Assembly: GCA_964354815.1 (NCBI GenBank)
Contig: CAYHBG010000003.1
Span: 1 to 46,551, forward strand
Direction of reading: 5' to 3'
Length of the DNA stretch: 46,551 bases
From: an uncultured Thermotogae bacterium
Lineage (GTDB): Bacteria > Bipolaricaulota > Bipolaricaulia > UBA7950 > UBA9294
Shown here: in pieces, positions 5,904-34,301 of the stretch
Layout of the letters: each line of letters begins with the position of its first letter
How positions within the stretch are numbered: the first letter of the stretch is position 1
Program-made: the position numbers and the translations under genes
Notes under the pieces: generated by a model
Database searches by the model: none
Seen by the model: only the letters and a program-made list of their open reading frames with translations
What the model was told of the DNA's origin: nothing

Positions 5904-5904
5904 C

Positions 5905-17980: not shown

Positions 17981-17988
17981 AACACACC

Positions 17989-18750
17989 TCATTCTGATTT
18001 GAATCCGAGAACGGTCACAACCCAGTGGTTGTTTGCTGTGTAGGTTGACGACGCCGTTTGGGTGGTCAGAGGCGATGTGAACGATCTGCACCACGTGTAG
18101 GCCCCGTTCTGCTGGTGGACGTGATCGGCTGTCGTCCCGGCAACCACCGAGTTGCTGTGTGTTCCGCTCGTGTAGATTGCTGAAAGAGCGCACACCACGT
18201 TGTCAGAGCCGGTCGTCGAGAAAGACCCCGACAGAAGGCTAAGGCTGTTTCCCTGCCCCTCGCGCGTCCCGCTGATGTCCTTCGACACCGTCTCGGTTCC
18301 CGCTCGGCGGTACTGCATCACGATGATTCGGCTGTATGCCTTCGCCGCTCCCAGCGTGGCCGTGAACGTGGCCGTCGCGTTGGCCGACGCGCTCGTCTTG
18401 TAGAGCGGGTGGACGGTGATTTCGCCGCCCGAGTTGGTGATGTCCTCTCCTGTGTCGAAGGTCAGCGAGTTGGAGCCGCCGTCCGTGACGGTGGCCGTCG
18501 TGGCGCCGCCGTCCTCGTACGACACCATCGCGACGACGAGGTCGCCCGCCGCCAGGACAAGTGGGTCGGATGTGGAAACGGTCGTGCCAGCCGCGTCCAC
18601 TCCACCGCTCGCGGAGTCGACGAACGTGAACTCGGTGCCTCCACCCCCGCCGCCGCCGCCGCCGCTCTCGCCACCCCCGCCCATCGTGACGACGCCAGGC
18701 CACGCGCAGAGGAGCGGGATCGCGAGGAGAACGAGTAGTAGTTTTCGCAT
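17989..18750 (-). CDS. Exported protein with poly-Gly linker and beta-rich domain (253 aa)
   Basis: MRKLLLVLLAIPLLCAWPGVVTM, then GGGGESGGGGGGGGG, then a ~200-aa Ser/Thr-rich domain. Start overlaps the tailspike stop (TGATG). Confidence 0.65.
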   Translation of the reverse strand: MRKLLLVLLAIPLLCAWPGVVTMGGGGESGGGGGGGGGTEFTFVDSASGGVDAAGTTVSTSDPLVLAAGDLVVAMVSYEDGGATTATVTDGGSNSLTFDTGEDITNSGGEITVHPLYKTSASANATATFTATLGAAKAYSRIIVMQYRRAGTETVSKDISGTREGQGNSLSLLSGSFSTTGSDNVVCALSAIYTSGTHSNSVVAGTTADHVHQQNGAYTWCRSFTSPLTTQTASSTYTANNHWVVTVLGFKSE

Positions 18751-21700
18751 CAGTTTGCCGCCCAGTCGCCGGCCTTGCCCAGCACGATCCACTCGTCGTC
18801 AGCCCCGTTGTCGCGTCCGATCATGCACACGAAGTCGCCCGTCGTGGGCGTGCTGGCGTCGATCGTGGAACCGGCCGTTCCGGCCACGCCCGACAGCCTG
18901 ATCCAGTCGTCCGCGTCGGCGTCGATGATGAGGTTGCCGGCCCCGTTCATGTTGTAGAAGCATGCGTTGACCCCGTCGCCGGCCGTGGCGATCTTGGGGA
19001 GCGTGACCGTCTTCGTGGACCCGCTCGTGTACCAGTGGACCGCGCCTCGGATCGATCGTCCGCTGGGCGAGTGCGTGGTGCCCGACGTGGTGAGGTTGTA
19101 GGAGGTTCCGGTCAGGAACCCGCTCACGTCGAGGGGCTTGGTCGTGGTGATGATCGCGTTCGCCCCGTTGAGGAGCATGTACTGCTGATCGATTCCGGTC
19201 CCGTCGTCGACGACCATCTCCATCGATGACGTGGTGCCGTTGTCGCTGAGCCTGACCGCGACCTCCTGCGCGTCCGTCGCGCTCGTGAGCCTGACCTCGG
19301 CGGTGTCCGAGGGCGTGGTCGTGATCGTGGGCGCGACGACCGAACCGAGAAGCGTCAGCTTGTCGAGGGCGGCGTCATACACCATCCCCGCATCGCCGCC
19401 CAGAACGTCTCCGGTGTCGTGGTACTGAACGGTTCCGATGGCGCCGCCAGGTGCGCCGCTGCCACCCGTGTCGAGTGCCGTCAGCGCGTTGTTCTGGCAC
19501 TTCATCAGCTTGCCTTCAGACGTGTCGTAGAAGATCCCACCGCCCGGATTCGCGAAGGTGGAGCAGTCGTTCAGGGCGTCGCCCGTCTCGAACTCGACGC
19601 CGAGAGCGTCCGCGAACATCTCGGCCGTGTTGATCTGCGCGCCCGTGAAGGTGTTGCTCGCGTCGGTCCTCGCGGCCGTGAAGTTGGCGTCTGGGAACGT
19701 GACTGTCCTCGCCTGCGTCGGACCCGCGATCATCAGCGAGAAAGGCGCGAGCGGGAAGAAGTACTCGGTGTCTGCGCCGCCCGTGTCTGGCGCGAGAGAA
19801 ATGCTGTACTTGAACTCGGTCGGATTGTTGGTTGCGCCCTCTCCGATCCATCCGCCGGCTCCCGTTCCGGTGGTCGTGAACTCAAGTTGCTCGACGCCCA
19901 TCGACGCGGACGCGTAGTCCTTCGAGAAGTCGAAGTCGAAGGAGATCGTGTCGGGGTCGCCGTTCGTGAAGACGGGGACGATGCCTCGGCCACCGTACAG
20001 CTCGACTCCGTCCGGGGAATCGACGTAGTTGGTCCCTCCCTCGGAGATGGGGAACCCGTGATTGAACTGGGTCCACTCGCCCTCCGTCTTGCAGATCCCG
20101 TCGGTGGCGGGCGTCGGCTCGCACACGAAGAGGGTGTCGTCGGACTGGAAGCAGAGGTCTCCCGCAACGTGAACGCCGGCCGCGCCCCAGGCAGGGCAGT
20201 TGGCCGAATATCCCACTTCGCCCGTTGCGGTGGTCGCCAATGCTCCGTTCCACACGCTGATATTCGCGGAGTTGAGCAACCTGATCTCAGCCCCGCCAGT
20301 GTAGTTCACACCGCCAGCAAGGTCTCCTCCTATCACTACGTCGGGTGTGCCGAACCAGTTATTGTCGCTGCGCACGATGTCGTGCCCTACCGCCGCACTC
20401 GACATTTGTGGGGCGATTCCTATGTACGACGCATGATTGCTGACGATGTTGATGTTGTCGGTCTCGTTCTCCCAGTGCGTTCCAATATCCCGGACAAGGC
20501 ACGCCGACGCTGTCGTGTCGGTTCCGAGAATTGAGAGTCCGATCGTGTTGGCCTCAATGGTCGCACCCGACAAAGTTATGTTTTGGCACGACCCCTGGTC
20601 CGCTAGCAGAAGGCCCACATCGTTCGCCCTGATCTGAACGCCAGACAATAGGTTTGCGTTGGACTGATTGCTTTCGGGGCTGGCAATCGTCAATACCTTC
20701 GTCAGCTTGATACCCGCATCGAAGTTCTTGATCGTCCCGCCTATGATCTGCGACTTCAATCCGAACCGCATTAGGACACCAGTCCCTAACGTGTCAGTCA
20801 GGTCGCCCAAACTTGTGTCGATGCCGATCACGGAAACGTGATCGAGCAAGAAATTGGCGACACCGTGCTCTCCGGTCAAATACGCATCGAAGGCCTCCGA
20901 CTCGATCTGGATTCCAATCCCGTTTGCGGTGATACCCGGAAGAACCATGTCAAACCCGCGCAGCACCTGACTTGACCCATTCACTCGGATCGCGGTCTTG
21001 TCTGCGCTGTTGTTGATGATCAGCGTGCTTCCGCCATAGACGTTGTACTCCGTCGCGTTCATGGAGCCCGCCCCTTCCAGAGAGCAGTGCCCACGGTGGC
21101 CCCAGTTGTCAGCAGGCAGGTTGATGATGGGCGAAGCAATGGCCGTCGCGTCGATCGTTGTGACGCCAGCCGGCAGAATGACCCGACCACCGTTAGCGGC
21201 ATCGCAGGCTGCGAGCGCCTGAACGATTCCACCCGTGTCGGACCCTGACGCGTACTGCGACGCGAACCACGTGCGCGAGTCGAGCTTCTTCGTCTGAAGG
21301 TCGAGAACCTGAGTGATGCTGTTCCCGTTCGCTTCGAGCGGGCCTCCGAGGGTCGGCGAGCCGTCGGCGGCCACCTCGGCAATGCCGCCTCCGGCGATCC
21401 CGATCCCGACCCAGCTCGTACCGTTCCAACCGCACCACAGGTCGGCGGTGGCCGGCGTCCCGCCCACGTCGCAGACGGACCCCACGTTGTTGTCGTCGGT
21501 CAGCAGCCACTGGTCTCCGGCCGCCGGGACCGACAAGATCATGTCTTCGTAGAGGCCGCTTCCGATCACGCCGCCAGACCCGCTTCCCGCCGAAGCGGAG
21601 CAGAAAACCAGCGCGTACGACGGGATGGTGGTCGACGTTTCGGACGTGTCGACGACGATCCTGAACTGCGTGGAGTCCTGCGGCACCACGATGGTCTGGT

Positions 21701-21998
21701 CCACCGTGAACTGCACGACGAGCGTGGCCGCCTCGATTTCGGCCAGCGTGTCGTCGGTCGGCCTCGTCGCGTACAACGACGCGACCGCCCCGGTGGAGCG
21801 GTCCCAAGTCACGCGCATGGAACCGCACGACTGGATCGGCATCGTGAAGTCGTTGACCGCGCGGTTCGACCCGAACTCGAACATCTGCGAGGCGCCCGAA
21901 GGCAGCTGCTTGTAGCTGCCCGTGAACTCCGCGGCGGTCGCGGGCAACGCCAGGAAAAGGGCCAGCAGAAATAACACAAAGCGAATCTTCATCATCAT
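18750..21998 (-). CDS. Tailspike/depolymerase-like protein with right-handed beta-helix (1082 aa) and N-terminal signal peptide
   Basis: MMMKIRFVLFLLALFLALPATA/AE. Fibre motif DGSPTLGGPLEANGNSITQV. Pectate-lyase-like start of the beta-helix IVQALAACDAANGGRVILPAGVTTIDA, followed by many short repetitive strands. AGGAGGGA SD. Confidence 0.8.
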   Translation of the reverse strand: MMMKIRFVLFLLALFLALPATAAEFTGSYKQLPSGASQMFEFGSNRAVNDFTMPIQSCGSMRVTWDRSTGAVASLYATRPTDDTLAEIEAATLVVQFTVDQTIVVPQDSTQFRIVVDTSETSTTIPSYALVFCSASAGSGSGGVIGSGLYEDMILSVPAAGDQWLLTDDNNVGSVCDVGGTPATADLWCGWNGTSWVGIGIAGGGIAEVAADGSPTLGGPLEANGNSITQVLDLQTKKLDSRTWFASQYASGSDTGGIVQALAACDAANGGRVILPAGVTTIDATAIASPIINLPADNWGHRGHCSLEGAGSMNATEYNVYGGSTLIINNSADKTAIRVNGSSQVLRGFDMVLPGITANGIGIQIESEAFDAYLTGEHGVANFLLDHVSVIGIDTSLGDLTDTLGTGVLMRFGLKSQIIGGTIKNFDAGIKLTKVLTIASPESNQSNANLLSGVQIRANDVGLLLADQGSCQNITLSGATIEANTIGLSILGTDTTASACLVRDIGTHWENETDNINIVSNHASYIGIAPQMSSAAVGHDIVRSDNNWFGTPDVVIGGDLAGGVNYTGGAEIRLLNSANISVWNGALATTATGEVGYSANCPAWGAAGVHVAGDLCFQSDDTLFVCEPTPATDGICKTEGEWTQFNHGFPISEGGTNYVDSPDGVELYGGRGIVPVFTNGDPDTISFDFDFSKDYASASMGVEQLEFTTTGTGAGGWIGEGATNNPTEFKYSISLAPDTGGADTEYFFPLAPFSLMIAGPTQARTVTFPDANFTAARTDASNTFTGAQINTAEMFADALGVEFETGDALNDCSTFANPGGGIFYDTSEGKLMKCQNNALTALDTGGSGAPGGAIGTVQYHDTGDVLGGDAGMVYDAALDKLTLLGSVVAPTITTTPSDTAEVRLTSATDAQEVAVRLSDNGTTSSMEMVVDDGTGIDQQYMLLNGANAIITTTKPLDVSGFLTGTSYNLTTSGTTHSPSGRSIRGAVHWYTSGSTKTVTLPKIATAGDGVNACFYNMNGAGNLIIDADADDWIRLSGVAGTAGSTIDASTPTTGDFVCMIGRDNGADDEWIVLGKAGDWAAN

Positions 21999-24900
21999 TC
22001 CCTCCTATCTCGGGGCTTTCGCCAGATCAGGTCGCGCGGAGAGCCCATCTCCTCGCCCGGCCAGAAGTTGTCGACCCAGATCTCGGCTTGCGAGAGCGGG
22101 GCCACGCGACCCATCGTGAGACCTTGCATCGTCAGAAGCGTGAGCTTCTCCGCGTCGAACTGCTCGTCCTCGTTGAACACCGCCTGCAGCTCGTCGAACA
22201 TCTGAACGGGCACGTCGAGCATTCGGCTGGCCGGGCTCTTTCCGAGGAACCTTCGCTTCTCGGGAAAAAGCATACCGTCGACCAGCTGGCTGACGCCCGG
22301 AACAGGCGACGCGAGAAGCGAAACGGCGCGCTTGAGTGACCAAGACAGCCACTCCTTCTCGCCCTCGTCGTCCTCGGGAGGGCCCTCCCCGCGGATCAGC
22401 GCGTCGAGCATCGCTGGCACGTAGATGGTCGTGATGATCATCCACGCGGCCGACGCCGGCATGGCCCTTCGGACCGCGCGCCCGTCCACGTCCTCGGTCG
22501 CCTGAAGCCCGCCCGCCATCCGAGCGGCGCGACGCGTTCGCGCGTAGATGTTGGACGTGAACGATCCGAACAGCGTGACCCACCGAACCCATCCCTCGGC
22601 CCGCATGAGCTGGCTCGCTCCCGCGATGGTCGACGATCCCTGCGTGCGCTCGATCGCACGATCTGCCTCTCGGATCGCGCGGGCCATGTCGCCGTGCTGA
22701 GACATCGACTTCATGCGCTGCGCGTCCCACACGATCGAGCTGACCACCGCGTCGGCCGTCGTGATGAGGATGCCCGTGTTGGCGTCGATGCGCGCCTTCA
22801 GCGAGTTTCGGTCCTGCTTCCTCGAAAGCATCTCCCGAAGCTCGCGGTCCTTCGTGATGCCGCGGTGCTGGAGCACTCGGCTGGCCGCGCGGACCTCGCG
22901 CACGAGACCCCAAACACCCTTGCGCGTCGAGTTGGCGATGGCCATGGCCATCCAGTGCGGTCCGACCTCCGAGAATCCGGGAGCGAGGCCCGTCACCTGA
23001 ATGAGGCCGGTCGAGATGCGGTAGGCGAGGCCCGAGTAGATCACGCTCGAACGCGCCAAGCTGTTGATCTTCTCGGCCTTCCGCCATCCGTCAGACGGTT
23101 TGCCGCTCTTCACTCGCGCGGCGTCGTGCACCATCTTCTTGAGCGCGTCCACGTACTCGGGCCCCCACGTCTTTCGGATGACCGACTCGAAGCGGGGGTG
23201 GTTCACGATCTTGTAGGTGTCGCGAACGGCCTTGCGCATCGTGAGGTCGTAGATCACGCGGTCAAGATGCTGAGAGATGACTCCGATGTCGGTGTCGAGC
23301 GGGGCCGAGTACTTGGCCGCGCGCGACTTCACGTGTCCGTGCTCGACCTCGCTCTTCACGAAGTTGTGGCCGAACATCCCCTCCACGTCTGCCTTGTCGT
23401 TGAGGGCCTGCGCTCGTTTGTTGTACTTGCTCCAGTACTTGGCGGGCATGTACCCGCCGTTCATCTTCTGTCCGGTGTGCGCGATGAACTCGCGGCGCTC
23501 CAGCGCGGTCGGGCGGTTGCCCGTCATCTCGAACTCGTGCTCGAACACTCGCCCGCGAAGACCCTCGAACGCGTCCCAGATCTCCTGCGCGATCTTCAGA
23601 TCCTCGACTGTCAGGTGCTGCTGGATCGCCTGCTCCATCACGCCGGGCGTCCAGCCCTTGAGGTCCTCGTTTCCCGCATATCCCTCGTCGCGGCGGTACA
23701 GGTTCGACTCGGTCCCCGAGTGGAGGAACCACATGAGGACCTCGTAGATCCGCACCTTATTCGGCGTGCCGGGGTTGTCGACGCCCGGCAGCGCGATCTC
23801 GCGGTTCATGCGAACCCAGTCGAGCTTGTCCATGGCCGCGAGCCAAGGCTTCGTCAGCTCGTTGGAACCGTCGATGTAGTCGTGCTCGCCTCGGTCGATG
23901 CTCTCGAACACGTACCGCCGAAGCGTGTTGTTCTGGATGTCGTCGCCGCCCGCGAAGTCGATCCAGTCGACGATGCGAAGGAGCATCGCGTCGGCCCACC
24001 GGATCATGTCTCGGAGCGACTGCAGCGACATCGGGTTAGGCCGGCTCGACTGGCCCTGCTTTCGGAGTCCGTTGACCTCCTCCACGCGCGACACGATCTG
24101 GTCCACGGCCGTCTCGATGGCCACCTTCTCGCCCGTGCGGATGTCCTTGACCTCCTGCCTCGAAGCGGTCTCGATGTTTCGGATCACGTCGATGAGCCCG
24201 AGGAACTCGCTGACGGGCATCTTGGACCAGTGCCTCGTGTCGGACTCCGCGTGCATCAGCCAGTCGGGAACCGAGATCGATTCGAGGTGCGACTCCTCTG
24301 CCGACTTCACGAACTCGGCCAGCGACTGAAGACCCTCGGCCTGCTGCGCGGCCACGATGATCTTCTGCAGCTTCACACCGAAAAGCGTCTGGCCCTCGGG
24401 CCGACCGCGGCGGGCCTTGCTGAGGTCGTACCTCTGCATCAGCTTGACGATCTGCGCGGCTCCGTCGAAGCCGGGCGCTCGCAGCTTCGCGAGGTTCTTT
24501 CCCTTCTTGAGCTTGTCGAGCATGCGCCACCCGCGCTCGCTCTCGACCATCGTGCGGTTGATCTCGTCGACCGCGTAGTCGGCCATCATCTGCCGCTCGA
24601 TCTCCACGGCCGCGTCCGCGAACTTCCTGGCGGCGAGCGCCTTGCGAGCGGCCTTTCCCGCGGCGCTCGCGACGGTGTTCCACGCGTGGCGCTGCTTCTT
24701 GAGGTCGCCGGCCAGAACGTCTCCGACCAGCTGGCGGGCCCGGCCTCGGAGGATGCCCGCGCGAAGGCGCTCCTCGATCGCTCGGAGCGTCTGCCCTGCC
24801 ACCCGAGCCTGCTTCCTGCCCTCGACCGCGGCCGTCTGCTGCGCGCGGGCGTTGACCACGAGGGCCTGAAGGTCCGAGATGGCCTGCTGGCTGGCTCCCG

Positions 24901-27900
24901 ACGAAACGGCCTCGGCCAGCGAGGCCTCGGCCAGCGCCACGTCGGATGCCGCGTCAGGCGCCGCAGGAGCCCCCGTGCTGGCCTGGGCCGTGCGGGCGGC
25001 GTCGAGGGCCGGCCCCTCGACCATCTGCCGCAGAGCGGCCAGCTCAGCCAGCGCCAGGGCCTCTCGGTCGGCTCCGGCCGCCGCCTCGGCGTCGGCCGTG
25101 ACCGACTCCTCCGACCACTGGTCGTTGCCCTCGATCTCGCGGTTCACGCGCTCCTGCACGTGCTGGTCGACGGTCCGGGCCTGAAGCATGGACTCGACCA
25201 TGTCTCCGACCGACCCGAAGCCCAGCGACTCGGCCGCCCACTCGGGGTCCATTCCGTTGGCCACCACCAGCCTTCGGCCCGTGCCCTGCGCAGGACGGGC
25301 CAGGAGCGCGTCGATGAGTCCCGGCCCCTGCGTCCCGAGGATCTCTTCGAGGCCGGCCCTGTCGAGGCCCTGGCCCTGCTCCGAACGCTTCAGCCACTCG
25401 ATCGCGGCCCAGCCCGGGTCGGCGGCCACCGCGGCCTCTGCCTCCTGCCGGAACATGTCCATGGCCTGCGCGAGCTGCTCTCGCATTCGCCGCTTCGCGT
25501 CGGGCATGTGGCGGCGGGTCACCCGCGTGAAGGCCTCGCTCTTGTGGCGCACCCACATCTTCTGATACGCGGCCCACTGCGCGTCGGACCAGCCCTCGGG
25601 CCGGTCCGCAAAAAGCGGCTCCGCGATGTCGCCGGCCGCCTCCTCCACGGCCCCTTCAATCAGGAACAGTCTGTCGTACACTTCGCGGATCTCATCCGTG
25701 AGGCTGACCCCCAGCAACTCGCGGGTCTGGCGCAGGCCGCCGTAGGCCTGACGCACCCACGACTTGAACTTGAAGAAGATGCCCTCCATCTCGGGCGTGG
25801 GCGCCTTGCCCTCTGCCAGCCACACCTCGAAGCCGCGAGCGAAAAGCTCGTGCGGCTTGTCGGGCTTGCCCTGGAACATCTGGTCGACGAGCGGGCGAGT
25901 GAGGTGCTCGAAGCTCTGCGCGCCGGTCCAACGCACGACGGTGTCGAGGTCCGCGTTCATCTGCTCGCTCGCGAGACCGAGCTGACGGAACACGACCATC
26001 TGCTGCAGGTACCAGTGCGCCAGCTCGTGCTGGAACCCCGTGAGGTCCGACGCGGACAGCACCGCCGCGTAGGCCTCCTTCTCCTTCAGCGCGATCTGGG
26101 CGCGCGGTCCGTCGGACGCCTGCTTGCCCGCCGAGTCGAGGGTCTCGACGATCTCGCTGATGGCCGCGTCGTCGTAGATCACGTAGTTGGTCGCGGTCTC
26201 TCCGTCCACTGTGCGGCGGCCCGAAATCGACTGCGCGTCGTAGCTGTGGCCCAACACACCGTTCGCAGCGAGTGACTCGGACAGGCCTTGCGGCGTGAAC
26301 TGCTCGCTGGTTGCCAGCTCGTAGATCTGCTCGAACCGCGCGTCCGTTCTCTTGATGAAGTCGAGCGTCGAGTTCGGAACACCTTCGCGCAGCGCGCGGA
26401 TGATGCCTTCGCGAACCTTCGGGTCCTGCTTGCTGAGCGGCAGCTCCCAGATCGCGAGGTCGTGGCTGTCGGGGATGTGGACGGCCGCGATCATTCCCTT
26501 GTTCTTGACGAGCGCGTCGAAGTCGAACGCCTCCATCTCCTCCGCAACGAGCCGCTCCGTCTCGGTCAGCGCAGCCTCGTTCCCCGCTCGTGTCTCCGGC
26601 GTGATGTGGTGTATTCGGGTGTAGCCGTCATCAGCGCTGAGGCGCATCGTCTTGTCGATGTCGGACTTGACTAGAAGCCCGACAGCTCTCCGCAGCGCGT
26701 CCTCTTCGATCGGCACCATCGTACCATCACGACTCGTGGCACCGTTGTAGATGCGAAGCGTGTGGTGCGCGATGATCTGCTCGATCCTTTCTCGGGCCCC
26801 TTCGATGTTTTGAGAGTGAACGGACCTAAGAAGACCCCAGACAGTCGGGGGCGCAATAACCGGATGGCCTTTGTACTGCCAGCCGCCCGACAGCTTGTCG
26901 CGATAGAACCTCGCGATGCCCCGGCTCGTGGTGAAGTAGATGCCCCAGCCGAACGCCTGCGCGCCCTCGCCGGTCCCGATGAAGCTGATGTCGAACTTCT
27001 TGAAGATCGCGGCGGTGCCGTGGAACACGAGCTGGCTGAGGATGTCGAGCTTCGTGGCTGTCTTCGTGCGCGCCTGCTTGTCGTTTACTCCGACTTCGAG
27101 GGGCGTTCCGAGGGGGCTGACGGTTCGCTTGGGCTCGAAGCCGAGTCGCTCGACTGCGGCGCTGTACTCTCGCCAGACCGGCTGATAAAGATCGTTGACG
27201 ACGGCTGACTGTAGATCGGGTGCTCCGGCGGCAGCTCCGTCGACCCAAGTCGTTGCAATATTCGCCGCGCCTCTTCCCGCGTAAATGTCACTGCCATCGT
27301 AGTTGCTCTCCACAGCGTAGTGGCTCAGAACATAGAACCCGTCGCCCAGCGCGGCGGCGATCTTCGTGCCGAACTCGTCGAACATGTCGGCCGTGTAGTC
27401 GCCATCGGCGAAGCGGCGGCCGTCCATGAACGTGAGCCCAAGACCGTCCGGCGACAGCGTGAAGTTGACGCCGTCGGGGTCCTGGGTCGGGTTCACCTTA
27501 GCGTAGAGGGCCTCGACATCGCTCGCGCTGATCTTGCCGCCGCCCTGCCGGTCAAACCGCAGCACGAAGTCCTGCCCGTTGAAGTCGGGCCGGGCCGTGA
27601 TCGAGGCGTCCTGCAGGAACGCGTCGCCCAGCAGCCGAGAGGCCGTCAGGGCCGTCTGCCACGACTCTCCGGGGTACGTGATCACGAGGCTCGGCTCGAC
27701 GCGGTCGAAGGTCCCAAGCGTCTTCGTGATGATGTGGTTGATGCCAAGCCGCCGCAGGACCTTGATCTGCCCGTCCGCGTCCGTGATCGCGGTCAGCACG
27801 CGGTCCTGGTACTCGACGAGGTCGGCCAGCGGGGTGCTCTTCGGGAACCCGTAGCCGCGGCCCTGCCCTGGGTTCACCGACACGGTGGTGGTCGGAGCAC

Positions 27901-30900
27901 GAGCCTCGGCCAGGGCGTCCAGCTCTGCCGCGAACTCGTTGGTCGACCAAGGGTCCGCCTGCACGTCCGACGTGAAGCTGGGGTCGACCTCGCGCCCGAG
28001 CGCGGTGTTGAGCGGAGTCGTCGTGTCGAACTGACCGTTCGCGATCATCTCCTCGATCTGCCCGATCTCGTCCTGCGACTTGAACTGCGCCTCCTCCCAC
28101 GACCCCTCCGTGAACTGGCTCACGGGTTTGGTGTCGCGGGGAGACAGGTGCGTCTTCGCGTAGAACCACAGAAGAGCCTGGATCTCGTCGGGAGCCATCC
28201 CGAAGTGCTGCGCCAGCTGCTCGGTCATCAGCATCGAATAACGGATCGCTTCGGGGCTGGGCATCTGCGCGGTGTCGACGATCGTGCTGATGCCGGTCTT
28301 CTCGCTGGTGACCCAGTCGCGGAACCGGAACCCGAACACCCGCGACATGTGAACGTCCTGCACGGTGAACGGATAGAACTTGTTGTCGGCCCGACGCCTC
28401 GTCAGCGTCATGTAGTTGGACACCTTGAGGCCGCCCGCGTAGGTGCCGGTCTGGTACACCTCCACGATCTTATCGAGCGCCGCGTTGGTGATCTTGATGC
28501 CGAGGCGTCCGGGCCCCTTGCGGATGACCTCGCGCTTGAATCCGTCGGGGTCGGTGGTCGGGTCGAACTTCCGCGCGGCGATCATGATCCGAAGCGTGTT
28601 CTTGAGGTTCTGCCACGTGTTGGTCTGCGCGCTCGTGATGCCGAAGATGATGGAGGCCTCGTGCAGGTTGGCCCGTCCGACCACCCGCGCGATGCCCTCT
28701 CCGAACTGCTTGTACCAGTCGCGCTGCCCTCCCGCCTCTCGCCTCGCCGTCTCCACGAATCCGACCAGCTCGTTGAAGGACGTGGGCCTAACGTCCGCGT
28801 CCAGGCTCTCAAGGTCAGCCGAACGCGCTCCCTCTTTCTCGACCCGAAGCATCTTCTTGGCCAGCTTCGCCGCGCGCTTCACGAGGCTGAGGTCCTCGTC
28901 GTCCGACATCGCCGCGTCCTGCAGCTTGATGTTCTCCTCCGCAAGCTCCTGCGCCGTGAGCCGGACGGCCTCCCCGCGCTTCTTGGGCGCTCCGGGTAGG
29001 TCCGCCAGCACGCTGCTCGTGAGGCCCTCTCGTCCGGTCCTCGCGACCGTGGAGAGGAAAGCCTCCTCCACGCGCCCGACCGGCAGGTTGGTGGCCGGCG
29101 TCTCGTTGGCCGCCTGCACGCGGACCTTCGCCTGCTCCTCCACCTCTTCCTGCGACAGCGGGGCCAGCTCGGGCCCGGCCGCGGAACCGTCGACCTCGCC
29201 CGCTCGGATCGCGCGGACCTGCTCCTTCGACAGCACGTTGAGCGGGTACAGCGCGAAGACTTCCTCGGGCGTGTACAGCTTGCCGGTGGCCTGCGAGACC
29301 ATCGCGGCCAGCGCGCGCACGCGATCGCGCACGGCCATGCCCTCGGTCTCGGCCGTCTTCTCGTCGCGGAAGCCCGTCTTCGCGAGCTGTTCGGCCACCC
29401 GCATGCCGACCTCACCCGCGGAGCTGTCGAGCATGACCTGCATGGCCAGCACGCTGTCCTTTTCCTCGGCGAGGTCGCCGAGGCCGATCTCCTGCATGCT
29501 CTTCTTCTGAGCTTCCATCCGCTGTGCTGGCGTCAGGCCGGCGGGCACGCTGGTGAGGTGCGCTCGGATGTGCGGCATCAGCTTGCTGTTGCTGACGACC
29601 GTCGCGAACTCGCGCGCGGGGATCGCGACCCTTCGTCCCTGGTCTCGGGCGTCCTGAATCCGCTTGCTGACTTCCGGCATAACGGCGTCGGCCTCCTCGG
29701 CGGGAATCGCCTCAGAGTTGAGAGCACCCTGCAGGATGTCTGGGTCCACGTACACGGTCGATCGGTCGGACCCCTCCGTGAGGATCCCGAGGAACTCGCC
29801 GGCCAGACGCGGTGAACGCTCGATCAGCTTGGATGTCGACTCGGTCTTGGCCCAAGCGTCGAAGAACTCGGCGTCGTCCTCCTGCGCGGAAACCTCTTTG
29901 TTCGCGCGGTACGACGCGAGGGGAGCGAACAGACCGCCCGTCAGCATCATGGTCGCGAACACGCTCGCGGCCTCTTCCAGGCCCTGCACGGCGTTAGGCC
30001 CCATCTCCTGCAGGAACACCTCGTCGAGGATCGCTCCGAGAGGCTTGCCCTGGCCTGCTCGCAGTACGGCGTCGCCGATCGCGGGGCTCAGAACGGCCTG
30101 GAAAAACTCCTCGCTGGCCTCCGCGCCAGACGCTTTCGCGGCGGCCCCCAGCCACCCCACGGCCCGGGCAAGTCGTGTCGGGTTCGCGAAGTAGGCGAGC
30201 GCCTCCTTCCGAACGGCAGGCTTGAGCATGCCGGGGATCGCCTTGGCCAGGAGCGGCTTCCCGAACACGTTCCACTGGAACTTCGCTCCCATGAACTCGA
30301 TGCCCGTCTCGACGGTGCCGAAGGTGATCGCAGCGAGCTTCGTCGCGAGGGCGTCGGGGTCCTCGCCCGCCTCGATCATGTCGCCGTACGCGGATCCGGT
30401 CGAGCGCCTCCACATCGACACGACGGCCCCGATCGCGAACGCGGACGGCAGAATGACGAGGGGTGCCGTGGTCGCGCCGATGGCCGCTCCGGGCGCAGCG
30501 CCAACGCCTGCGGTCGGGGCGCCAAACAACGCGGCGCCTGCCGCCGCGCCGCCCACGATCGCGAAGGGCACCGCCACCCGGGCGGCCTTCGCTCCCTCGA
30601 TCGCGGGGTCCACGAACATGGTGTCGGCCATCCCGCCCAGCGTTTCGAGGATGCGACGGTCGAACGCAGACTTGGGCTGTCCGCCCGTCTCCGCGATCTG
30701 TTTGTTGATCCGGCTGATCTCGCCGGCCACCTCCCACGCGGGGGCGCCGCGAAACAGATCCTCGTACACGCGGCTCTTCTCCAGCTGCAGGCGGCTGCGC
30801 TGCAGAGCGCCGGCCACCACCGCGGGCTTGTCGATCACGTCGCGCATGAGCTGGGCCGCGCCCTCGAAGAAGGTCGAGTCGTCTGCCCCGTAGAAGTTGG

Positions 30901-31267
30901 CCTCGGGGTTCTGCTCGACGAAGCGAACGAATCGCTCGTCGCTAGCGAGGGCCGACACGCGCCGCTGTCGCTCCTCCACCGACATCCCGACGGGCGTCTG
31001 TCCGGTCGGGTCTGCGGTCCTCTCGAAGTTGAAGAGCCTCGACTGGATCGCGTCGGGCCCCACCTTCAGCCCGATGTCCTGGCGGTGCACGGCCGCCTTC
31101 GCGCGGTCGAGGCGCGCGGCCTCCTCGATCTCGATGGGCTGATTCGACGGGACCACCGACTTCAGGCCAGCGGCCACGTCGAACGAACGCTTCGCGGCGA
31201 TCCGCTCGCGGTACGGCTCGTCGGTCAGCAGCATGTCGAGGGGCAGGCTCACGAGGTCTTCGCTCAC
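21995..31267 (-). CDS. Giant virion/ejection protein (3090 aa), polyvalent-protein-like, with ART-like and HExxH motifs
   Basis: Single uninterrupted ORF at the position of T7 gp16. Gly/Ala-zipper hydrophobic region near the N-terminus (VPFAIVGGAAAGAALFGAPTAGVGAAPGAAIGATTAPLVILPSAFAIGAVV). VFHGTAAIFKKFD ... GWGIYFTTS ... NYVIYDD at nt 26168-27025. FQHELAHWY with HELAH at nt 26015-26029. Confidence 0.85.
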   Translation of the reverse strand: MSEDLVSLPLDMLLTDEPYRERIAAKRSFDVAAGLKSVVPSNQPIEIEEAARLDRAKAAVHRQDIGLKVGPDAIQSRLFNFERTADPTGQTPVGMSVEERQRRVSALASDERFVRFVEQNPEANFYGADDSTFFEGAAQLMRDVIDKPAVVAGALQRSRLQLEKSRVYEDLFRGAPAWEVAGEISRINKQIAETGGQPKSAFDRRILETLGGMADTMFVDPAIEGAKAARVAVPFAIVGGAAAGAALFGAPTAGVGAAPGAAIGATTAPLVILPSAFAIGAVVSMWRRSTGSAYGDMIEAGEDPDALATKLAAITFGTVETGIEFMGAKFQWNVFGKPLLAKAIPGMLKPAVRKEALAYFANPTRLARAVGWLGAAAKASGAEASEEFFQAVLSPAIGDAVLRAGQGKPLGAILDEVFLQEMGPNAVQGLEEAASVFATMMLTGGLFAPLASYRANKEVSAQEDDAEFFDAWAKTESTSKLIERSPRLAGEFLGILTEGSDRSTVYVDPDILQGALNSEAIPAEEADAVMPEVSKRIQDARDQGRRVAIPAREFATVVSNSKLMPHIRAHLTSVPAGLTPAQRMEAQKKSMQEIGLGDLAEEKDSVLAMQVMLDSSAGEVGMRVAEQLAKTGFRDEKTAETEGMAVRDRVRALAAMVSQATGKLYTPEEVFALYPLNVLSKEQVRAIRAGEVDGSAAGPELAPLSQEEVEEQAKVRVQAANETPATNLPVGRVEEAFLSTVARTGREGLTSSVLADLPGAPKKRGEAVRLTAQELAEENIKLQDAAMSDDEDLSLVKRAAKLAKKMLRVEKEGARSADLESLDADVRPTSFNELVGFVETARREAGGQRDWYKQFGEGIARVVGRANLHEASIIFGITSAQTNTWQNLKNTLRIMIAARKFDPTTDPDGFKREVIRKGPGRLGIKITNAALDKIVEVYQTGTYAGGLKVSNYMTLTRRRADNKFYPFTVQDVHMSRVFGFRFRDWVTSEKTGISTIVDTAQMPSPEAIRYSMLMTEQLAQHFGMAPDEIQALLWFYAKTHLSPRDTKPVSQFTEGSWEEAQFKSQDEIGQIEEMIANGQFDTTTPLNTALGREVDPSFTSDVQADPWSTNEFAAELDALAEARAPTTTVSVNPGQGRGYGFPKSTPLADLVEYQDRVLTAITDADGQIKVLRRLGINHIITKTLGTFDRVEPSLVITYPGESWQTALTASRLLGDAFLQDASITARPDFNGQDFVLRFDRQGGGKISASDVEALYAKVNPTQDPDGVNFTLSPDGLGLTFMDGRRFADGDYTADMFDEFGTKIAAALGDGFYVLSHYAVESNYDGSDIYAGRGAANIATTWVDGAAAGAPDLQSAVVNDLYQPVWREYSAAVERLGFEPKRTVSPLGTPLEVGVNDKQARTKTATKLDILSQLVFHGTAAIFKKFDISFIGTGEGAQAFGWGIYFTTSRGIARFYRDKLSGGWQYKGHPVIAPPTVWGLLRSVHSQNIEGARERIEQIIAHHTLRIYNGATSRDGTMVPIEEDALRRAVGLLVKSDIDKTMRLSADDGYTRIHHITPETRAGNEAALTETERLVAEEMEAFDFDALVKNKGMIAAVHIPDSHDLAIWELPLSKQDPKVREGIIRALREGVPNSTLDFIKRTDARFEQIYELATSEQFTPQGLSESLAANGVLGHSYDAQSISGRRTVDGETATNYVIYDDAAISEIVETLDSAGKQASDGPRAQIALKEKEAYAAVLSASDLTGFQHELAHWYLQQMVVFRQLGLASEQMNADLDTVVRWTGAQSFEHLTRPLVDQMFQGKPDKPHELFARGFEVWLAEGKAPTPEMEGIFFKFKSWVRQAYGGLRQTRELLGVSLTDEIREVYDRLFLIEGAVEEAAGDIAEPLFADRPEGWSDAQWAAYQKMWVRHKSEAFTRVTRRHMPDAKRRMREQLAQAMDMFRQEAEAAVAADPGWAAIEWLKRSEQGQGLDRAGLEEILGTQGPGLIDALLARPAQGTGRRLVVANGMDPEWAAESLGFGSVGDMVESMLQARTVDQHVQERVNREIEGNDQWSEESVTADAEAAAGADREALALAELAALRQMVEGPALDAARTAQASTGAPAAPDAASDVALAEASLAEAVSSGASQQAISDLQALVVNARAQQTAAVEGRKQARVAGQTLRAIEERLRAGILRGRARQLVGDVLAGDLKKQRHAWNTVASAAGKAARKALAARKFADAAVEIERQMMADYAVDEINRTMVESERGWRMLDKLKKGKNLAKLRAPGFDGAAQIVKLMQRYDLSKARRGRPEGQTLFGVKLQKIIVAAQQAEGLQSLAEFVKSAEESHLESISVPDWLMHAESDTRHWSKMPVSEFLGLIDVIRNIETASRQEVKDIRTGEKVAIETAVDQIVSRVEEVNGLRKQGQSSRPNPMSLQSLRDMIRWADAMLLRIVDWIDFAGGDDIQNNTLRRYVFESIDRGEHDYIDGSNELTKPWLAAMDKLDWVRMNREIALPGVDNPGTPNKVRIYEVLMWFLHSGTESNLYRRDEGYAGNEDLKGWTPGVMEQAIQQHLTVEDLKIAQEIWDAFEGLRGRVFEHEFEMTGNRPTALERREFIAHTGQKMNGGYMPAKYWSKYNKRAQALNDKADVEGMFGHNFVKSEVEHGHVKSRAAKYSAPLDTDIGVISQHLDRVIYDLTMRKAVRDTYKIVNHPRFESVIRKTWGPEYVDALKKMVHDAARVKSGKPSDGWRKAEKINSLARSSVIYSGLAYRISTGLIQVTGLAPGFSEVGPHWMAMAIANSTRKGVWGLVREVRAASRVLQHRGITKDRELREMLSRKQDRNSLKARIDANTGILITTADAVVSSIVWDAQRMKSMSQHGDMARAIREADRAIERTQGSSTIAGASQLMRAEGWVRWVTLFGSFTSNIYARTRRAARMAGGLQATEDVDGRAVRRAMPASAAWMIITTIYVPAMLDALIRGEGPPEDDEGEKEWLSWSLKRAVSLLASPVPGVSQLVDGMLFPEKRRFLGKSPASRMLDVPVQMFDELQAVFNEDEQFDAEKLTLLTMQGLTMGRVAPLSQAEIWVDNFWPGEEMGSPRDLIWRKPRDRRE

Positions 31268-33183
31268 TTCGCCACCGCCTTCTCCGCGGTGTCGTCCCTG
31301 AATCTGCGGGGTTCGAGCCCGTCCACGATCGGCGTGAGCGGCGCGTTCGTCAGAAGCCCGAACCGCAGAAGGTGGATCACCATGGCGGGGTCCCTCGACA
31401 GGCTCTCGGGCGTCGAGTCGAGCGGGAACCGCCTACCATCCACCACCAGACTGGGATGGTTCATTCCGATCTCTAGCGCCGTGGCGATGAGGCCTTGGTC
31501 CTTCTTCTGCGCGAGGTCGAAGGACACCTCCTCGGGGTCCGCCGTGAACAGCTCGCCTAGCGTCCCATCGAACCCACCGCTGTGCCACTGGTCGTCGTAC
31601 GACAGGTGAAGGCTCGTGGCCATCCTCTCCAGCTCGATGCGGTCCGGCAGCTTCTCGTTCAGCCGGAAGAAGTCCTGCGACAGGTCCAGCATCTGCTGGT
31701 ACTTCTTCGCGTACGATCCCCGCACGTCCTTGGCCGGCGTCTTCTCGTAGGGGCCCTTCCCGTCTACCCGCACGCGGGCGGCGTCGAGAGCCTCTCCTAT
31801 CACCTTCGGTTCGGGAACCGACCCCTTCATGCCGAGGGCGGGTCCCGCCCACGCCGTGAAGTCGGACTCCTTCATGAAGGGCTTCCAGTACATGATCTCG
31901 GACCGACTCATGCCATCTGTCGGCTGGTACAGGCGGTCCTTGGCCTTGGGCGTCGACTCGGCCGGGAACCCGGTGCCCGTCTTCCCCATGTTGGTCTGCA
32001 CCTGAAGAAGCCAACCAGCGAACTGCGTGTCCCTCTCCCCGTGCGCGCCCTCAAGAAGGCGAGTGACCTCCGCCGACACCGCCGCGGTGTCCCCCTTGGC
32101 CAGAAGCTTGATGACGTTGGTCTGCTGAGCGCCTCGCAGGTCGTCGTGCGCCTGCTTGTCGGAGTCGAGACGAAGGCCCAGGTCCACGCTGGCCCTCCGC
32201 TTGACCTCCTGCACCATGTCGTCGGGAGCCTCGTATCCATTTCGGGCCTTGAAGTCGGACTTGAACACCGAAGCCGCGTGGTCCCGCAACGCCTTCTCGC
32301 TGGGCGTGCTGTCGCTCGCGAGCACGGCCGAGTAGGAGCCCGACACGATCCCGTCCATCGACGAGTAGGCGCCCTCGTCCACGATCCTCTTGGTGACGGC
32401 GGCCCGCTCGGTCGGAGACCACATCGACTCGTAGGCCTCTTGGATCTTGCGCGCGACGGGGATCCTGTTGGGCGATAGGTCCAGCTGCGCGAAAACAGAC
32501 TTGTACGCGTTCTCCGCGATGAGGTTGCGGGTCTGCACGGCGGTCTCTTCGTCGCTCATGCCCCGGTGCATCATCTCAAGGTTCTGCTCGGTCTCCTTGA
32601 TCAGGTCGGGGTCCGCGTAGCTCGTCGTCCCGTCGGGCCGCGTACGCGGGAGGAATCGCTCGGGCGCCTCGATGACCGTCTTCTGCATGCGCGTGCTGAT
32701 CGCGGCTCCGGCACGCGACACACGCAGGTCTTCGAGCTGTCCGGCCTCCTCCGCCGCCACCTGATCGCGGGTGCGAGCGATCTCCTTCGTCGCGAACTCG
32801 ATGAACGCGTCGCGGCCCGGGCCCGTCTTCATCTTCGACGCGTACTCGCGCGCGTGGTCGTTCAGCTTCTGCGTGGTCTCCAGGGCCGCGCCCTCGAAGT
32901 CCTCCGCTCGGCGAAGGAGAACGCCGTCCTTGCCCCGGAGAAGGTCCGACTCGAAGGACCAGTAGTCCTGCTGCCCCTCCAGGTACACGCGCTCGTTGGC
33001 CCGCTGGTTGTACCCACGAGCCACGATCGCGACGGCTCGGTTCGTGTCTTCCCCCAGCCGATCGAGAGCGCCACCCAGCAGCGTCATTCCAGCCGCCACG
33101 CGGTCTGCGCCAACGTCGGTCTGCACGCCGCCTAACGAGGCGCCGAGGGAGTTGCGAACGTCTACCGGCTCGACTTTGGCCAC
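31264..33183 (-). CDS. Internal virion protein (639 aa; positional analogue of T7 gp15)
   Basis: GTG start 6 nt after GAGG. Largely helical, charged protein between a Gly-zipper protein and the giant protein. Confidence 0.6.
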   Translation of the reverse strand: MAKVEPVDVRNSLGASLGGVQTDVGADRVAAGMTLLGGALDRLGEDTNRAVAIVARGYNQRANERVYLEGQQDYWSFESDLLRGKDGVLLRRAEDFEGAALETTQKLNDHAREYASKMKTGPGRDAFIEFATKEIARTRDQVAAEEAGQLEDLRVSRAGAAISTRMQKTVIEAPERFLPRTRPDGTTSYADPDLIKETEQNLEMMHRGMSDEETAVQTRNLIAENAYKSVFAQLDLSPNRIPVARKIQEAYESMWSPTERAAVTKRIVDEGAYSSMDGIVSGSYSAVLASDSTPSEKALRDHAASVFKSDFKARNGYEAPDDMVQEVKRRASVDLGLRLDSDKQAHDDLRGAQQTNVIKLLAKGDTAAVSAEVTRLLEGAHGERDTQFAGWLLQVQTNMGKTGTGFPAESTPKAKDRLYQPTDGMSRSEIMYWKPFMKESDFTAWAGPALGMKGSVPEPKVIGEALDAARVRVDGKGPYEKTPAKDVRGSYAKKYQQMLDLSQDFFRLNEKLPDRIELERMATSLHLSYDDQWHSGGFDGTLGELFTADPEEVSFDLAQKKDQGLIATALEIGMNHPSLVVDGRRFPLDSTPESLSRDPAMVIHLLRFGLLTNAPLTPIVDGLEPRRFRDDTAEKAVAK

Positions 33184-33834
33184 TTATCGCCTCGTCACGT
33201 AGTTGGAAGGCCCGATGGCGAACGGGCGATCCCAGTCAACCCCGCCGAACGTATCCTCGTTGGCGACCGAAGCTTTTCCGAACCCGCCCATCGCGTATCC
33301 CACGCTGGTGTAGGCGCTCGTTATCCCGCCGAGTATCCCAACGCCCGCCGCCGCGGCGCCGTACATGTGGCCCGACGCGATGTTGTTTCCGCGAGCGATC
33401 GCGTTGCTGGCCGTCAGCTGCAGAGACAGCACGCGCGCGTCCACGTTTCGCTTGATGATGTCTCCGTCGAACGTCTGGAACTTGCGGGCCTCGGTCATCT
33501 GCCGGGCCACGTTGCCGATCGAAAGGTCCTTCGACGACGTGGCCTGCGCGACCATCAGTCGTCCAAACTCGCGCTGCGCCTGCACGCCGAACTTGAACAT
33601 CTCGACCTCGCCCGCCTGCTCGGCCAGAGCGGCCTCGTAGCGTGCGATCTTGGCCTCGTACTTTCCCTGGTCCTTCGCGGCGTCGGCCGCCTGCATCTGG
33701 CCCGAGATCGTGACGGCTCCGCTGATGATGGCGGGGATCGACGCAACAGCCACGTTGGCGGCCAGCGCAGCGCCCGCGCTGAGGCTCGTCGCGATGCCGG
33801 CTCCGGCCGCTCCAGCCGCTAGGAAGATGCACAT
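33184..33834 (-). CDS. Internal virion protein with Gly/Ala-zipper membrane segments (216 aa; positional analogue of T7 gp14)
   Basis: ATG at 33834, 6 nt after GGAGAGGGGA; the alternative is ATG at 33852. MCIFLAAGAAGAGIATSLSAGAALAANVAVASIPAIISGAV, plus a second Gly-rich hydrophobic segment near the C-terminus. Confidence 0.6.
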   Translation of the reverse strand: MCIFLAAGAAGAGIATSLSAGAALAANVAVASIPAIISGAVTISGQMQAADAAKDQGKYEAKIARYEAALAEQAGEVEMFKFGVQAQREFGRLMVAQATSSKDLSIGNVARQMTEARKFQTFDGDIIKRNVDARVLSLQLTASNAIARGNNIASGHMYGAAAAGVGILGGITSAYTSVGYAMGGFGKASVANEDTFGGVDWDRPFAIGPSNYVTRR

Positions 33835-34301
33835 GTCTGGTCCCCTCTCCACCAGAACACGTAGTAGTCGTGTTCTCCGCGCTTGACGACCGTGTCCTTG
33901 AAGATCTCGAACCCGAGCACCTCAAGCATGCTCTGCGCCGGACCGTCCTCCGCCGGCACGTAGTTCATCATGGGTCCGGGGTACGCCTTCGTCAGCTCGG
34001 CCCACCACCGCTTGGCCTCTCGCATCACGCGGATCGGGTGCTCCATCAGAGCGAGCTGCGTCATTACCATCCAAGGCACCTGCACCTTCTCGTCGTCTGC
34101 CACACCAAACATCGCAACCGGCTCGTCCCCAAGCATGACGAGGCGAGCCATCTTCGAGCTGCGCCAGCAGTACTCAAGCCCCTCCTCCACCGTCGCGAAC
34201 GAGCGGAGGAAGTCGTCTCGCTCGGGGATTCGGATGTCGCACGCCAGAACGGACAGCTGGCTCGGTGTCACGACGGGCAGGTACGTGATTTCACTCAGCA
34301 T
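33819..34301 (-). CDS. Small virion-module protein, GNAT-fold-like (160 aa)
   Basis: The pattern LVMLGDEPVAMFGV...VPWMVMT...YPGPMMNYVPAEDGPAQSMLEVLGFEI resembles acetyltransferase-fold proteins seen next to internal virion genes in podoviruses. This is recollection only. Confidence 0.45.
   Translation of the reverse strand: MLSEITYLPVVTPSQLSVLACDIRIPERDDFLRSFATVEEGLEYCWRSSKMARLVMLGDEPVAMFGVADDEKVQVPWMVMTQLALMEHPIRVMREAKRWWAELTKAYPGPMMNYVPAEDGPAQSMLEVLGFEIFKDTVVKRGEHDYYVFWWRGDQTCASS

Follow-up and report, generated by a model that had tools for sequence, protein, structure and literature searches.

We analysed a 46,551-nucleotide stretch of DNA from an uncultured Thermotogae bacterium (contig CAYHBG010000003.1 of assembly GCA_964354815.1; G+C content 65%; hereafter the window, meaning this whole stretch). 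Its minus strand contains a giant open reading frame (ORF) whose product is, by homology and gene order, a large internal virion (ejection) protein of the Bbp10 type, encoded where T7 has gp16, in a BPP-1/T7-type podophage. This ejection protein has probably been built into a polyvalent effector that carries an ADP-ribosyltransferase (ART) domain and a HExxH domain. A previous reading made without database searches (the sequence-only reading) had taken ART motifs of the PARP/diphtheria-toxin class and a nearby HExxH motif for one effector pair inside a giant virion protein. The motifs that it quoted are real, all within a single uninterrupted ORF of 3,090 aa, and gene order and Bbp10 homology place both domains in a protein at the internal-virion position. 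The two do not make up one pair, however, as the HExxH domain belongs to the core of Bbp10-like proteins and the ART is variable cargo.

We assign the giant protein to the Bbp10 type because of its homology to Bbp10, its match to phrog_9880 and the order of the genes around it. By blastp, aa 1699–2968 (about 1,270 aa) align with residues 752–1935 of Bbp10 at an E-value (E) of 1e-63, and aa 477–678 align with Bbp10 407–595; AF_016, JessA_39 and vir555_54 are matched likewise. The phrog_9880 profile covers aa 2140–3043 at E 9e-159. Some records label Bbp10-like proteins "lysis protein", and Bbp10 homologues also carry the annotation "crystallin beta/gamma motif-containing protein". The giant ORF and its parts are as follows.

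21995–31267, minus strand: giant ORF, 3,090 aa, GTG start (uninterrupted translation of 3,090 codons)
29198–31267, minus strand: conserved N-terminal module, aa 1 to ~690, shared with relatives of ~3,000 aa
27068–29170, minus strand: variable cargo region between the N-terminal module and the ART, aa ~700–1400, absent from Bbp10
26132–27046, minus strand: predicted ART domain, aa ~1408–1712, related to ART-PolyVal, with a PARP/diphtheria-toxin-like fold and two helical inserts (Pfam, homologues, model)
25628–26110, minus strand: HExxH...E...E domain, aa ~1720–1880, zincin-like by motif and resident in Bbp10-like giant proteins (profile search, conservation)
22139–24850, minus strand: conserved C-terminal module, aa 2140–3043 (phrog_9880 and Bbp10 matches)

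An ART domain of the PARP/diphtheria-toxin class

Profile matches, homologues and structural models support the assignment of aa ~1408–1712 to an ART domain of the PARP/diphtheria-toxin (H-Y-x) class that is related to ART-PolyVal. Its motifs and its larger insert are listed here in the direction of translation.

27014–27028, minus strand: VFHGT, aa 1414–1418 (translation)
27020–27022, minus strand: codon of His1416 (HGT, strand 1), the putative NAD-binding residue, equivalent to PARP1 His862 (hhalign and conservation)
26930–26977, minus strand: GTGEGAQAFGWGIYFT, aa 1431–1446, signature loop of the subfamily and strand 2 with Tyr1444, equivalent to PARP1 Tyr896 (hhalign and conservation)
26930–26950, minus strand: GWGIYFT, aa 1440–1446 (translation)
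26903–26905, minus strand: codon of Tyr1455, in the helix after strand 2, equivalent to PARP1 Tyr907 (hhalign and conservation)
26498–26887, minus strand: helical insert of ~130 aa, aa ~1461–1590, between the helix that follows strand 2 and strand 3 (low-confidence model)
26168–26209, minus strand: VDGETATNYVIYDD, aa 1687–1700 (translation)
26168–26191, minus strand: TNYVIYDD, aa 1693–1700, strand equivalent to PARP1 NEYIVYD, with Asn1694 at the position of the catalytic Glu (hhalign and conservation)

The number of His1416 and the spacings between the motifs (~270 residues from the first ART motifs to the last strand, and ~45 from there to the HExxH motif) were given correctly in the sequence-only reading. 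Two of its coordinates need to be moved: the 42-residue segment VFHGT...ARFY, put at nt 26931–27025, spans nt 26903–27028, and VDGETATNYVIYDD, said to end at nt 26188, ends at nt 26209.

The sole Pfam match on the whole giant protein is to ART-PolyVal (PF18760; model length 140, gathering cut-off 31.2 bits), at 22.4 bits and E 2.3e-4 over aa 1413–1458 (model positions 8–47); fragments of the protein score 27.3–28.5 bits, with E down to 3e-6. A protein search returned 26 ART homologues, most of them with a precomputed PF18760 match. When these homologues were rescanned, the match was limited to model positions ~6–66, and two of them, P0007 (32.3 bits) and P0015 (32.4 bits), exceeded the cut-off. 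The prototype of the family, the virion RNA polymerase (vRNAP) of Roseovarius Plymouth podovirus 1 (RPP1), itself reaches 36.5 bits over model positions 5–70 only. A search with this profile had been suggested as a check on the ART, and its outcome is divided between a partial match in the giant protein and two homologues that pass the cut-off. Weak DUF3990 matches recur among the homologues, one of which also has a weak RES match; both families belong to the Pfam ART clan (PMC7955679).

In a first AlphaFold model of 506 aa (aa 1395–1900; predicted local distance difference test score, pLDDT, of 69.8), the beta core is confident, whereas two helical inserts are modelled poorly. The ~130-aa insert is modelled at pLDDT 34–59 and is missing in P0031, the closest relative: aa 1456 and 1591 correspond there to the neighbouring residues 1743 and 1753; among homologues, inserts at this site of the ART differ in size. 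We also modelled an insert-trimmed construct (aa 1406–1466, 1588–1632 and 1660–1714), aligned to full-length homologues, which reached pLDDT 83.4 and a predicted template modelling (TM) score, pTM, of 0.80. Its best 50 matches in the PDB are all members of the ART superfamily (tankyrase 1/2, PARP1, PARP2, diphtheria toxin and RES toxin), with a best E of 3e-3, probability up to 0.99 and TM scores of 0.40–0.46; the weight of this result lies in the uniformity of the match list, as each single match is not strong. Searched against BFVD, which collects predicted structures of viral proteins, the full model matches 20 entries at E<=1e-3. These include proteins named "ART-PolyVal-like domain-containing protein" and "PolyVal ADP-Ribosyltransferase" and a protein of Burkholderia phage Bp-AMP4, and the matches to ART-PolyVal-like proteins have E 5e-11 to 1e-9. 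The class proposed for the ART in the sequence-only reading has stood up, with the H, Y and Y of its site invariant and with only ART folds among the top 50 PDB matches of the trimmed model.

A sequence search of the PDB with the whole giant protein gave no match. Profile A1 gave one PDB match, to SSB, that we judged spurious, and profiles A2 and A5 gave weak, motif-level matches, among which one to TraO at E 0.002 is probably spurious too.

An active site with Asn in place of the catalytic acid

Residue equivalences with PARP1 come from hhalign comparison of the ART profile with a PARP1 catalytic-domain sequence that is 100% identical to PDB 6m3i (pairwise E 3e-4 to 7e-4). FHGT aligns with WHGS, GWGIYF with GKGIYF and ARFY with SANY, pairing H1416 with H862, Y1444 with Y896 and Y1455 with Y907. 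In the last strand, TNYVIYD aligns with NEYIVYD, so that N1694 takes the position of E988 and D1699 that of D993. The residues that are near- or fully invariant in the homologue alignments are H1416, G1417, G1431, E1434, Y1444, F1445, A1452, Y1455, G1670, G1673, Y1676, N1694 and V1696. Wherever a homologue includes the N-terminal half of the domain, H1416 is unchanged. In alignments A1 and A3, G1431, E1434 and Y1444 vary little or not at all, and Y1455 (Y50 in A3) does not vary in A3. The first 26 homologues all have Glu1434, which belongs to the GTGEG loop and is Ala in the relative P0033.

The sequence-only reading had taken a Glu in the last strand as the catalytic residue. This residue, E1690, lies four positions upstream of N1694 and is Asp or Glu in 22/45 relatives; we rejected it as the catalytic residue on account of this half conservation, while the PARP Glu988 position is taken by Asn1694. 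Asn1694 begins a predicted strand in the models, and 45 of the 47 instances of the subfamily have Asn there. Conservation among homologues, which had been named as a check, thus holds for the His, the Tyr and the HExxH residues and fails for the proposed Glu. D1699 is Asp in 42 of 45 relatives (93%), but the closest relative, P0031, reads NFVIWNN, with NN in place of the D1699/D1700 pair. Because of this NN, the two aspartates after the strand are not essential, and their candidacy as the Asp of the ART-PolyVal family is unsupported.

The ART-PolyVal active site has been described as His, Tyr and Asp (H-Y-D; PMC5512222). The giant protein has the His and the Tyr, and no Asp was found to be invariant; where canonical members (RPP1, P0100) have G[FY]DG, the giant protein has GVLG. 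In the C-terminal half of the ART, the homologue alignments show no acid that is invariant. At the beginning of strand 5, where the H-Y-[EDQ] clade requires Glu, Asp or Gln, the giant protein has Asn1694. Judged from these alignments, the tetrad is H-Y-Y-N in place of H-Y-E, with the NAD-binding half intact and the usual catalytic acid replaced.

One could suppose that the ART domain binds NAD+ or an ADP-ribose derivative without transferring it, as a pseudo-enzyme, a sensor, a sponge or a structural module. The Asn at the PARP1 Glu988 position in 45 of 47 relatives, the poor conservation of Glu1690, the NN of the closest relative and the lack of an invariant acid in the C-terminal half all fit this idea, and inactive ART-like domains exist, such as PARP13 and TASOR (PMC7955679). 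However, an Asn that is itself nearly invariant suggests selection for a specific chemistry, not decay, and it is accompanied by invariant H, Y and Y. The nearly invariant Glu1434 of the GTGEG loop could provide an acid from elsewhere, and recurrence as cargo in the ejection and head proteins of unrelated podophages suits an effector. Moreover, some human PARPs in which I, L or Y replaces the Glu are listed as active mono-ARTs in a table of PMC7955679. We consider a non-transferring domain unlikely and, because of these Glu-less PARPs, propose mono-ADP-ribosylation as the most likely activity of the ART by analogy. On a more doubtful reading, this Asn-type ART might use another acceptor (for instance a nucleic acid or a small molecule), rely on substrate-assisted catalysis or take its acid from Glu1434.

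A HExxH domain resident in Bbp10-like proteins

The second domain lies directly after the ART, and its motifs are these.

26015–26029, minus strand: HELAH, aa 1747–1751 (translation); H1747, E1748 and H1751 form a putative zinc-binding and catalytic motif (conservation, model)
25829–25855, minus strand: PHELFARGF, aa 1805–1813 (translation)
25826–25852, minus strand: HELFARGFE, aa 1806–1814, downstream helix with Glu1807 and Glu1814, candidate third zinc ligands (conservation, model)

H1747, E1748, H1751, E1807, E1814, P1823, F1831 and Y1842 are invariant in 153/153 aligned domains, and A1810, R1811 and F1813 are conserved above 87%. HELAH lies on a predicted helix (model residues 348–368, pLDDT ~86–89), and the HELFARGFE helix, which puts E1807 and E1814 56–63 residues past the motif, is modelled at pLDDT ~90. 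An invariant H, E and H with a downstream Glu is the gluzincin pattern, in which two His and a Glu would serve as ligands and the Glu of the motif as base. The domain is zincin-like by motif and conservation only. The sequence-only reading had called it ArdC-like or gluzincin-like; the gluzincin side of this is borne out by the motif and by the invariance of E1807 and E1814, and no ArdC, MPTase-PolyVal or other zincin model, nor a zincin fold, was found to go with it.

The family is very widespread. With clustering at 50% identity, an exhaustive profile search recovered 10,941 clusters at E<=1e-3, of which 9,259 also reach E<=1e-10; most of these proteins are 1,500–4,800 aa long. A word-indexed protein search with the HExxH domain alone found no match, which is an artefact of sensitivity: the matches of the exhaustive search include one at E 3e-68, and negatives from indexed searches are unreliable for short domains. 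With aa ~1411–1871 as the tblastn query, only the C-terminal third (the HExxH region) is common to ~50 podophages, including BPP-1, AF, HU1, CP2, Jess A and Vibrio and Xanthomonas phages. On this distribution, the HExxH domain is a core resident part of all Bbp10-like proteins, not optional cargo. Proteins with the same domain also carry ART-PolyVal (102 bits), LPD22, LPD23, LPD3, PBECR3 and RadC, and because of this co-occurrence the domain belongs in the network of polyvalent proteins.

Residence in essentially all Bbp10-like proteins makes the domain look like core machinery more than a weapon, and a role other than that of a peptidase has to be weighed: a part of the ejection channel that serves its structure or binds metal, or an enzyme of another kind in the cell envelope, with peptidoglycan peptides as one example of a substrate. 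The lack of a match to any zincin family or fold fits this, and the "lysis protein" label of some records points the same way. On the other hand, an invariant H, E and H with two downstream Glu on a helix is the pattern of a gluzincin active site, and the best PDB sequence matches at the motif, weak as they are, are to zinc metalloproteases. The known peptidoglycan peptidases of virions use other motifs (M23 and M15, with HxxxD and HxH). The domain also keeps company with domains of polyvalent proteins, among which MPTase is the most common (PMC5512222). We regard a non-peptidase as improbable and the HExxH domain as a probable peptidase, judging from its conserved residues.

Chance resemblance and points against the assignments

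In 20,000 shuffles of the giant protein, HExxH alone turns up in 4.1% and is not significant by itself; the pair HG[ST]...GxY[FL][AST] turns up in 0.04%, and the pair with a downstream x[YF][VI][VI][YF]D strand in 0/20,000. A chance resemblance in a long, compositionally ordinary structural protein, which the frequency of HExxH in shuffles and the sub-threshold Pfam scores would allow, can be dismissed as extremely improbable, since the combined ART motifs do not arise in shuffles, the fold matches are exclusively to ARTs and, as the real proof beyond any shuffle, the key residues are conserved over tens to hundreds of distant homologues, which refutes it.

Several results count against a polyvalent ejection protein with an ART and a peptidase. 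For the ART, the PF18760 match stays below the gathering score and covers only model positions 8–48 of 140, and the hhalign mapping onto PARP1 has a low probability, 27–41%. The intact 506-aa model has no PDB match better than E 1.9, likely because inserts of ~130 and ~30 aa interrupt the ART core; no PDB match of the trimmed model attains E<=1e-3, and that construct, with its inserts deleted, is artificial. The catalytic acid is missing at the PARP-equivalent position, and because of this and of the NN in the closest relative, enzymatic activity is not assured. For the HExxH domain, neither the window domain nor 20 members of its family match any Pfam zincin model, MPTase-PolyVal and the ArdC type included, at E<=1. 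Its profile matches in the PDB are weak and at motif level: Spartan (E 0.12), YME1 and FtsH, the three together spanning E 0.12–1.5. Comparison with the RPP1 MPTase domain by hhalign gave a probability of 3.5% and no similarity beyond HExxH. The zincin fold was not recovered; the two-domain model has no PDB match by Foldseek, and the presumed beta-strand region preceding HExxH is modelled at pLDDT <50. Finally, packaging, ejection and cytoplasmic exposure of the protein are inferred from synteny and from the analogy with T7 and BPP-1.

Modular architecture and exchange of cargo

The N-terminal module has 25–39% identity to P0031, P0040, P0033, P0039 and P0100 over aa ~4–890 by blastp. Compared with Bbp10, the giant protein has ~1,000 extra residues (aa ~700–1700), inserted just before the HExxH domain. 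P0031, the closest relative, is 53% identical over aa 1591–3089 and has the same ART without the ~130-aa insert, and the ART is also present in P0033. P0040 is 51% identical over aa 1615–3090. In P0040, P0039, P0100, P0041, P0043 and P0110, the N-terminal module and the part from HExxH onward are common, and other sequence lies between them; the cargo of relatives includes DUF7178 and canonical ART-PolyVal (model positions 1–130). Sequence comparison thus presents the ART as variable cargo placed directly upstream of the HExxH domain.

The last strand of the ART stands immediately upstream of 26/152 HExxH domains, and 19 of those 26 also have the N-terminal ART motif, so the order of ART then HExxH is recurrent. 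With its ART, HExxH domain and cargo, the giant protein holds what defines a polyvalent protein, namely at least two unrelated effector-type domains in one large polypeptide of the virion module.

The cargo region between the N-terminal module and the ART (aa ~700–1400) has no Pfam match. For aa 830–1400, a word-indexed search found a single database homologue, P0174, with 44–45% identity over aa 820–1043. By eye, the cargo stretch RDWYKQFGEG...SAQTNTWQN resembles a DUF7178 motif that is sited alike in relatives; Pfam did not confirm DUF7178 here. Also by eye, the cargo of P0039, P0041, P0043, P0110 and P0033 has a second, different HExxH motif (RVTHE[IV]AHG...YGGRGRRAGAMG) upstream of the conserved HExxH domain, which Pfam does not recognise in these five proteins, and P0031, P0040, P0100 and P0003 have a GNAT-like stretch (…GGRKLDCFDT.LP..YS.MGF…).

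Internal-virion or head-module proteins with an ART of this subfamily are also found in the Burkholderia phages Bp-AMP1 to Bp-AMP4, in Ralstonia phage RS-PI-1 and in the assembled virus vir555. In Sulfitobacter phage phiGT1, gene 5 (4918–6081) encodes a free-standing member of 387 aa, two genes after the portal, with 38% identity to homologue P0020. It is recorded as "hypothetical protein", which suggests a head-packaged ART not annotated as such in its genome record.

Gene context

The giant gene follows those for tail tube A, tail tube B and small internal virion proteins, and the head genes are on its strand. The features around it are the following.

43634–45130, minus strand: terminase (PHROG match)
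40995–42701, minus strand: portal or head-tail adaptor (PHROG match)
40023–40754, minus strand: protease (PHROG match)
39015–40010, minus strand: major head protein (PHROG match)
37078–38079, minus strand: tail tube A (PHROG match)
34291–37074, minus strand: tail tube B (PHROG match)
33819–34301, minus strand: internal virion protein (PHROG match)
31264–33852, minus strand: ORFs of 222 and 639 aa, between the internal virion protein gene and the giant ORF
16667–21998, minus strand: ORFs of 1,082 and 508 aa, downstream of the giant gene

The structural genes from terminase to internal virion protein are thus all upstream of the giant ORF on the same strand, and the opposite arm of the window encodes primase/helicase, exonuclease, DNA polymerase and helicase. 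The genomes of Bordetella phage BPP-1 (Bbp13 tail, Bbp12 internal virion protein, Bbp11, Bbp10), Pseudomonas phage AF, Caulobacter phage Jess A and vir555 are annotated with this order of genes too. In blastp of the neighbours against their counterparts in these four genomes, only the 160-aa protein had a match (AF_013), so the synteny rests on PHROG matches and gene order. The 1,082-, 508-, 639- and 222-aa neighbours have no PHROG, Pfam or NCBIfam match, and blastp did not pair them with the proteins encoded at the corresponding places in BPP-1, AF, Jess A or vir555. Pfam gave no match on five neighbouring proteins, and NCBIfam nothing useful on the giant protein and its neighbours. By their coordinates, the giant ORF overlaps each adjacent ORF by 4 nt, which suggests translational coupling. 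No close relative of the window at the DNA level is present among 50,697 GenBank phage records; the sole match there is a 55-nt stretch shared with a BPP-1-like phage.

Comparison with known systems

Phage proteins with ART-PolyVal (N4-ART) and MPTase domains were described as polyvalent proteins by Iyer, Burroughs, Anand, de Souza and Aravind in 2017 (PMC5512222), and polyvalent virion proteins were taken up again in 2022 (PMC9503650). The prototype, the RPP1 vRNAP, is likewise a giant protein of the virion module that strings together unrelated enzymatic domains, with an H-Y-x ART (aa 1023–1096 and later) directly upstream of HExxH (an M90/SprT-like peptidase, aa 1252–1387). Its carrier is an N4 virion RNA polymerase, whereas here it is a Bbp10/gp16-type ejection protein, and the HExxH domain studied here matches neither Pfam zincin models nor the RPP1 peptidase. 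From the polyvalent class at large, the ART differs in its GTGEGAQAFG loop, its large helical inserts and its Asn in place of the family Asp.

Bbp10 of BPP-1 and its homologues in AF, CP2, Jess A and others have the same gene position, after tail tube B and small internal virion proteins. The homology of Bbp10 runs from the HExxH domain through to the C-terminus and takes in part of the N-terminus, but Bbp10 has 2,052 aa and no ART. The best fold matches of the ART are the catalytic domains of PARPs (tankyrase, PARP1/2) and of diphtheria toxin, with which HG[ST], GxYF[AT] and the helix Tyr align. In contrast to PARPs, the giant protein has Asn for the catalytic Glu, two helical inserts and no PARP regulatory domain, and identity is 12–21%.

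Phage T4 Alt, an ART that is packaged in the head, injected with the DNA and modifies host RNA polymerase (PMC5512222, PMC9503650), may serve as a functional model for the ART here. Alt differs in belonging to the R-S-E clade and in being a separate small protein, and T4 is a myovirus.

Proposed function

We propose a four-part protein: the N-terminal module (aa 1–690), the cargo (~700–1400), the ART (~1408–1712) and the HExxH domain (~1720–1880) with the C-terminal ejection module. From the biology of T7 and BPP-1, it would be carried in the capsid and leave through the tail before the DNA does, and its middle part would enter the cytoplasm, where NAD+ is available. There the ART would bind host NAD+ and, by analogy with Glu-less PARPs, mono-ADP-ribosylate at least one host target, which would favour the phage before expression of any phage gene. 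Host polymerase is one plausible, if speculative, target of an Alt-like ART. The larger ORFs scanned in the window did not include a T7-type RNA polymerase, and for this reason early transcription would depend on the host polymerase.

The HExxH domain would act as a zinc metallopeptidase, most likely cleaving its own carrier, the giant protein, so that the modules are freed or activated, a role that Iyer et al. proposed for MPTase domains (PMC5512222); cleavage of a host protein would be the less likely alternative. A bolder and rather doubtful combination would make the GTGEG-loop Asn ART a separate enzymatic class and the HExxH domain, to which it is coupled in a fixed order, a built-in, self-cleaving protease that releases swappable cargo. 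Bbp10-type ejectosomes may then be programmable vehicles that cut off their cargo and release it in the host cytoplasm.

Implications

The giant protein belongs to the polyvalent-protein class of Iyer et al. (PMC5512222). Because that concept was published in 2017, its value is that of a concrete, testable example, not of a new principle, and related viral proteins are already labelled "ART-PolyVal-like" in UniProt. The polyvalent-protein paper (PMC5512222) makes no mention of BPP-1-type or gp16-position proteins, and in the literature searched we found no biochemical characterisation of ART-PolyVal-type domains or of this HExxH domain. Added interest comes from the near-invariant Asn at the catalytic position of the ART, from a very large HExxH family (~10,900 clusters) outside Pfam coverage and from a site of cargo exchange in Bbp10-type ejection proteins. 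The Asn variant is a defined mutational target, and the swap site between the N-terminal module and the HExxH domain could be mined for new anti-defence or takeover effectors.

If the proposed function is right, an NAD+-using enzyme would be delivered with the DNA-ejection machinery before phage genes are transcribed. NAD+ is cytoplasmic, and an ART at this site would for that reason mean that ejection proteins of the Bbp10/gp16 type extend with their middle part into the cytoplasm, which would constrain models of the podophage ejectosome.

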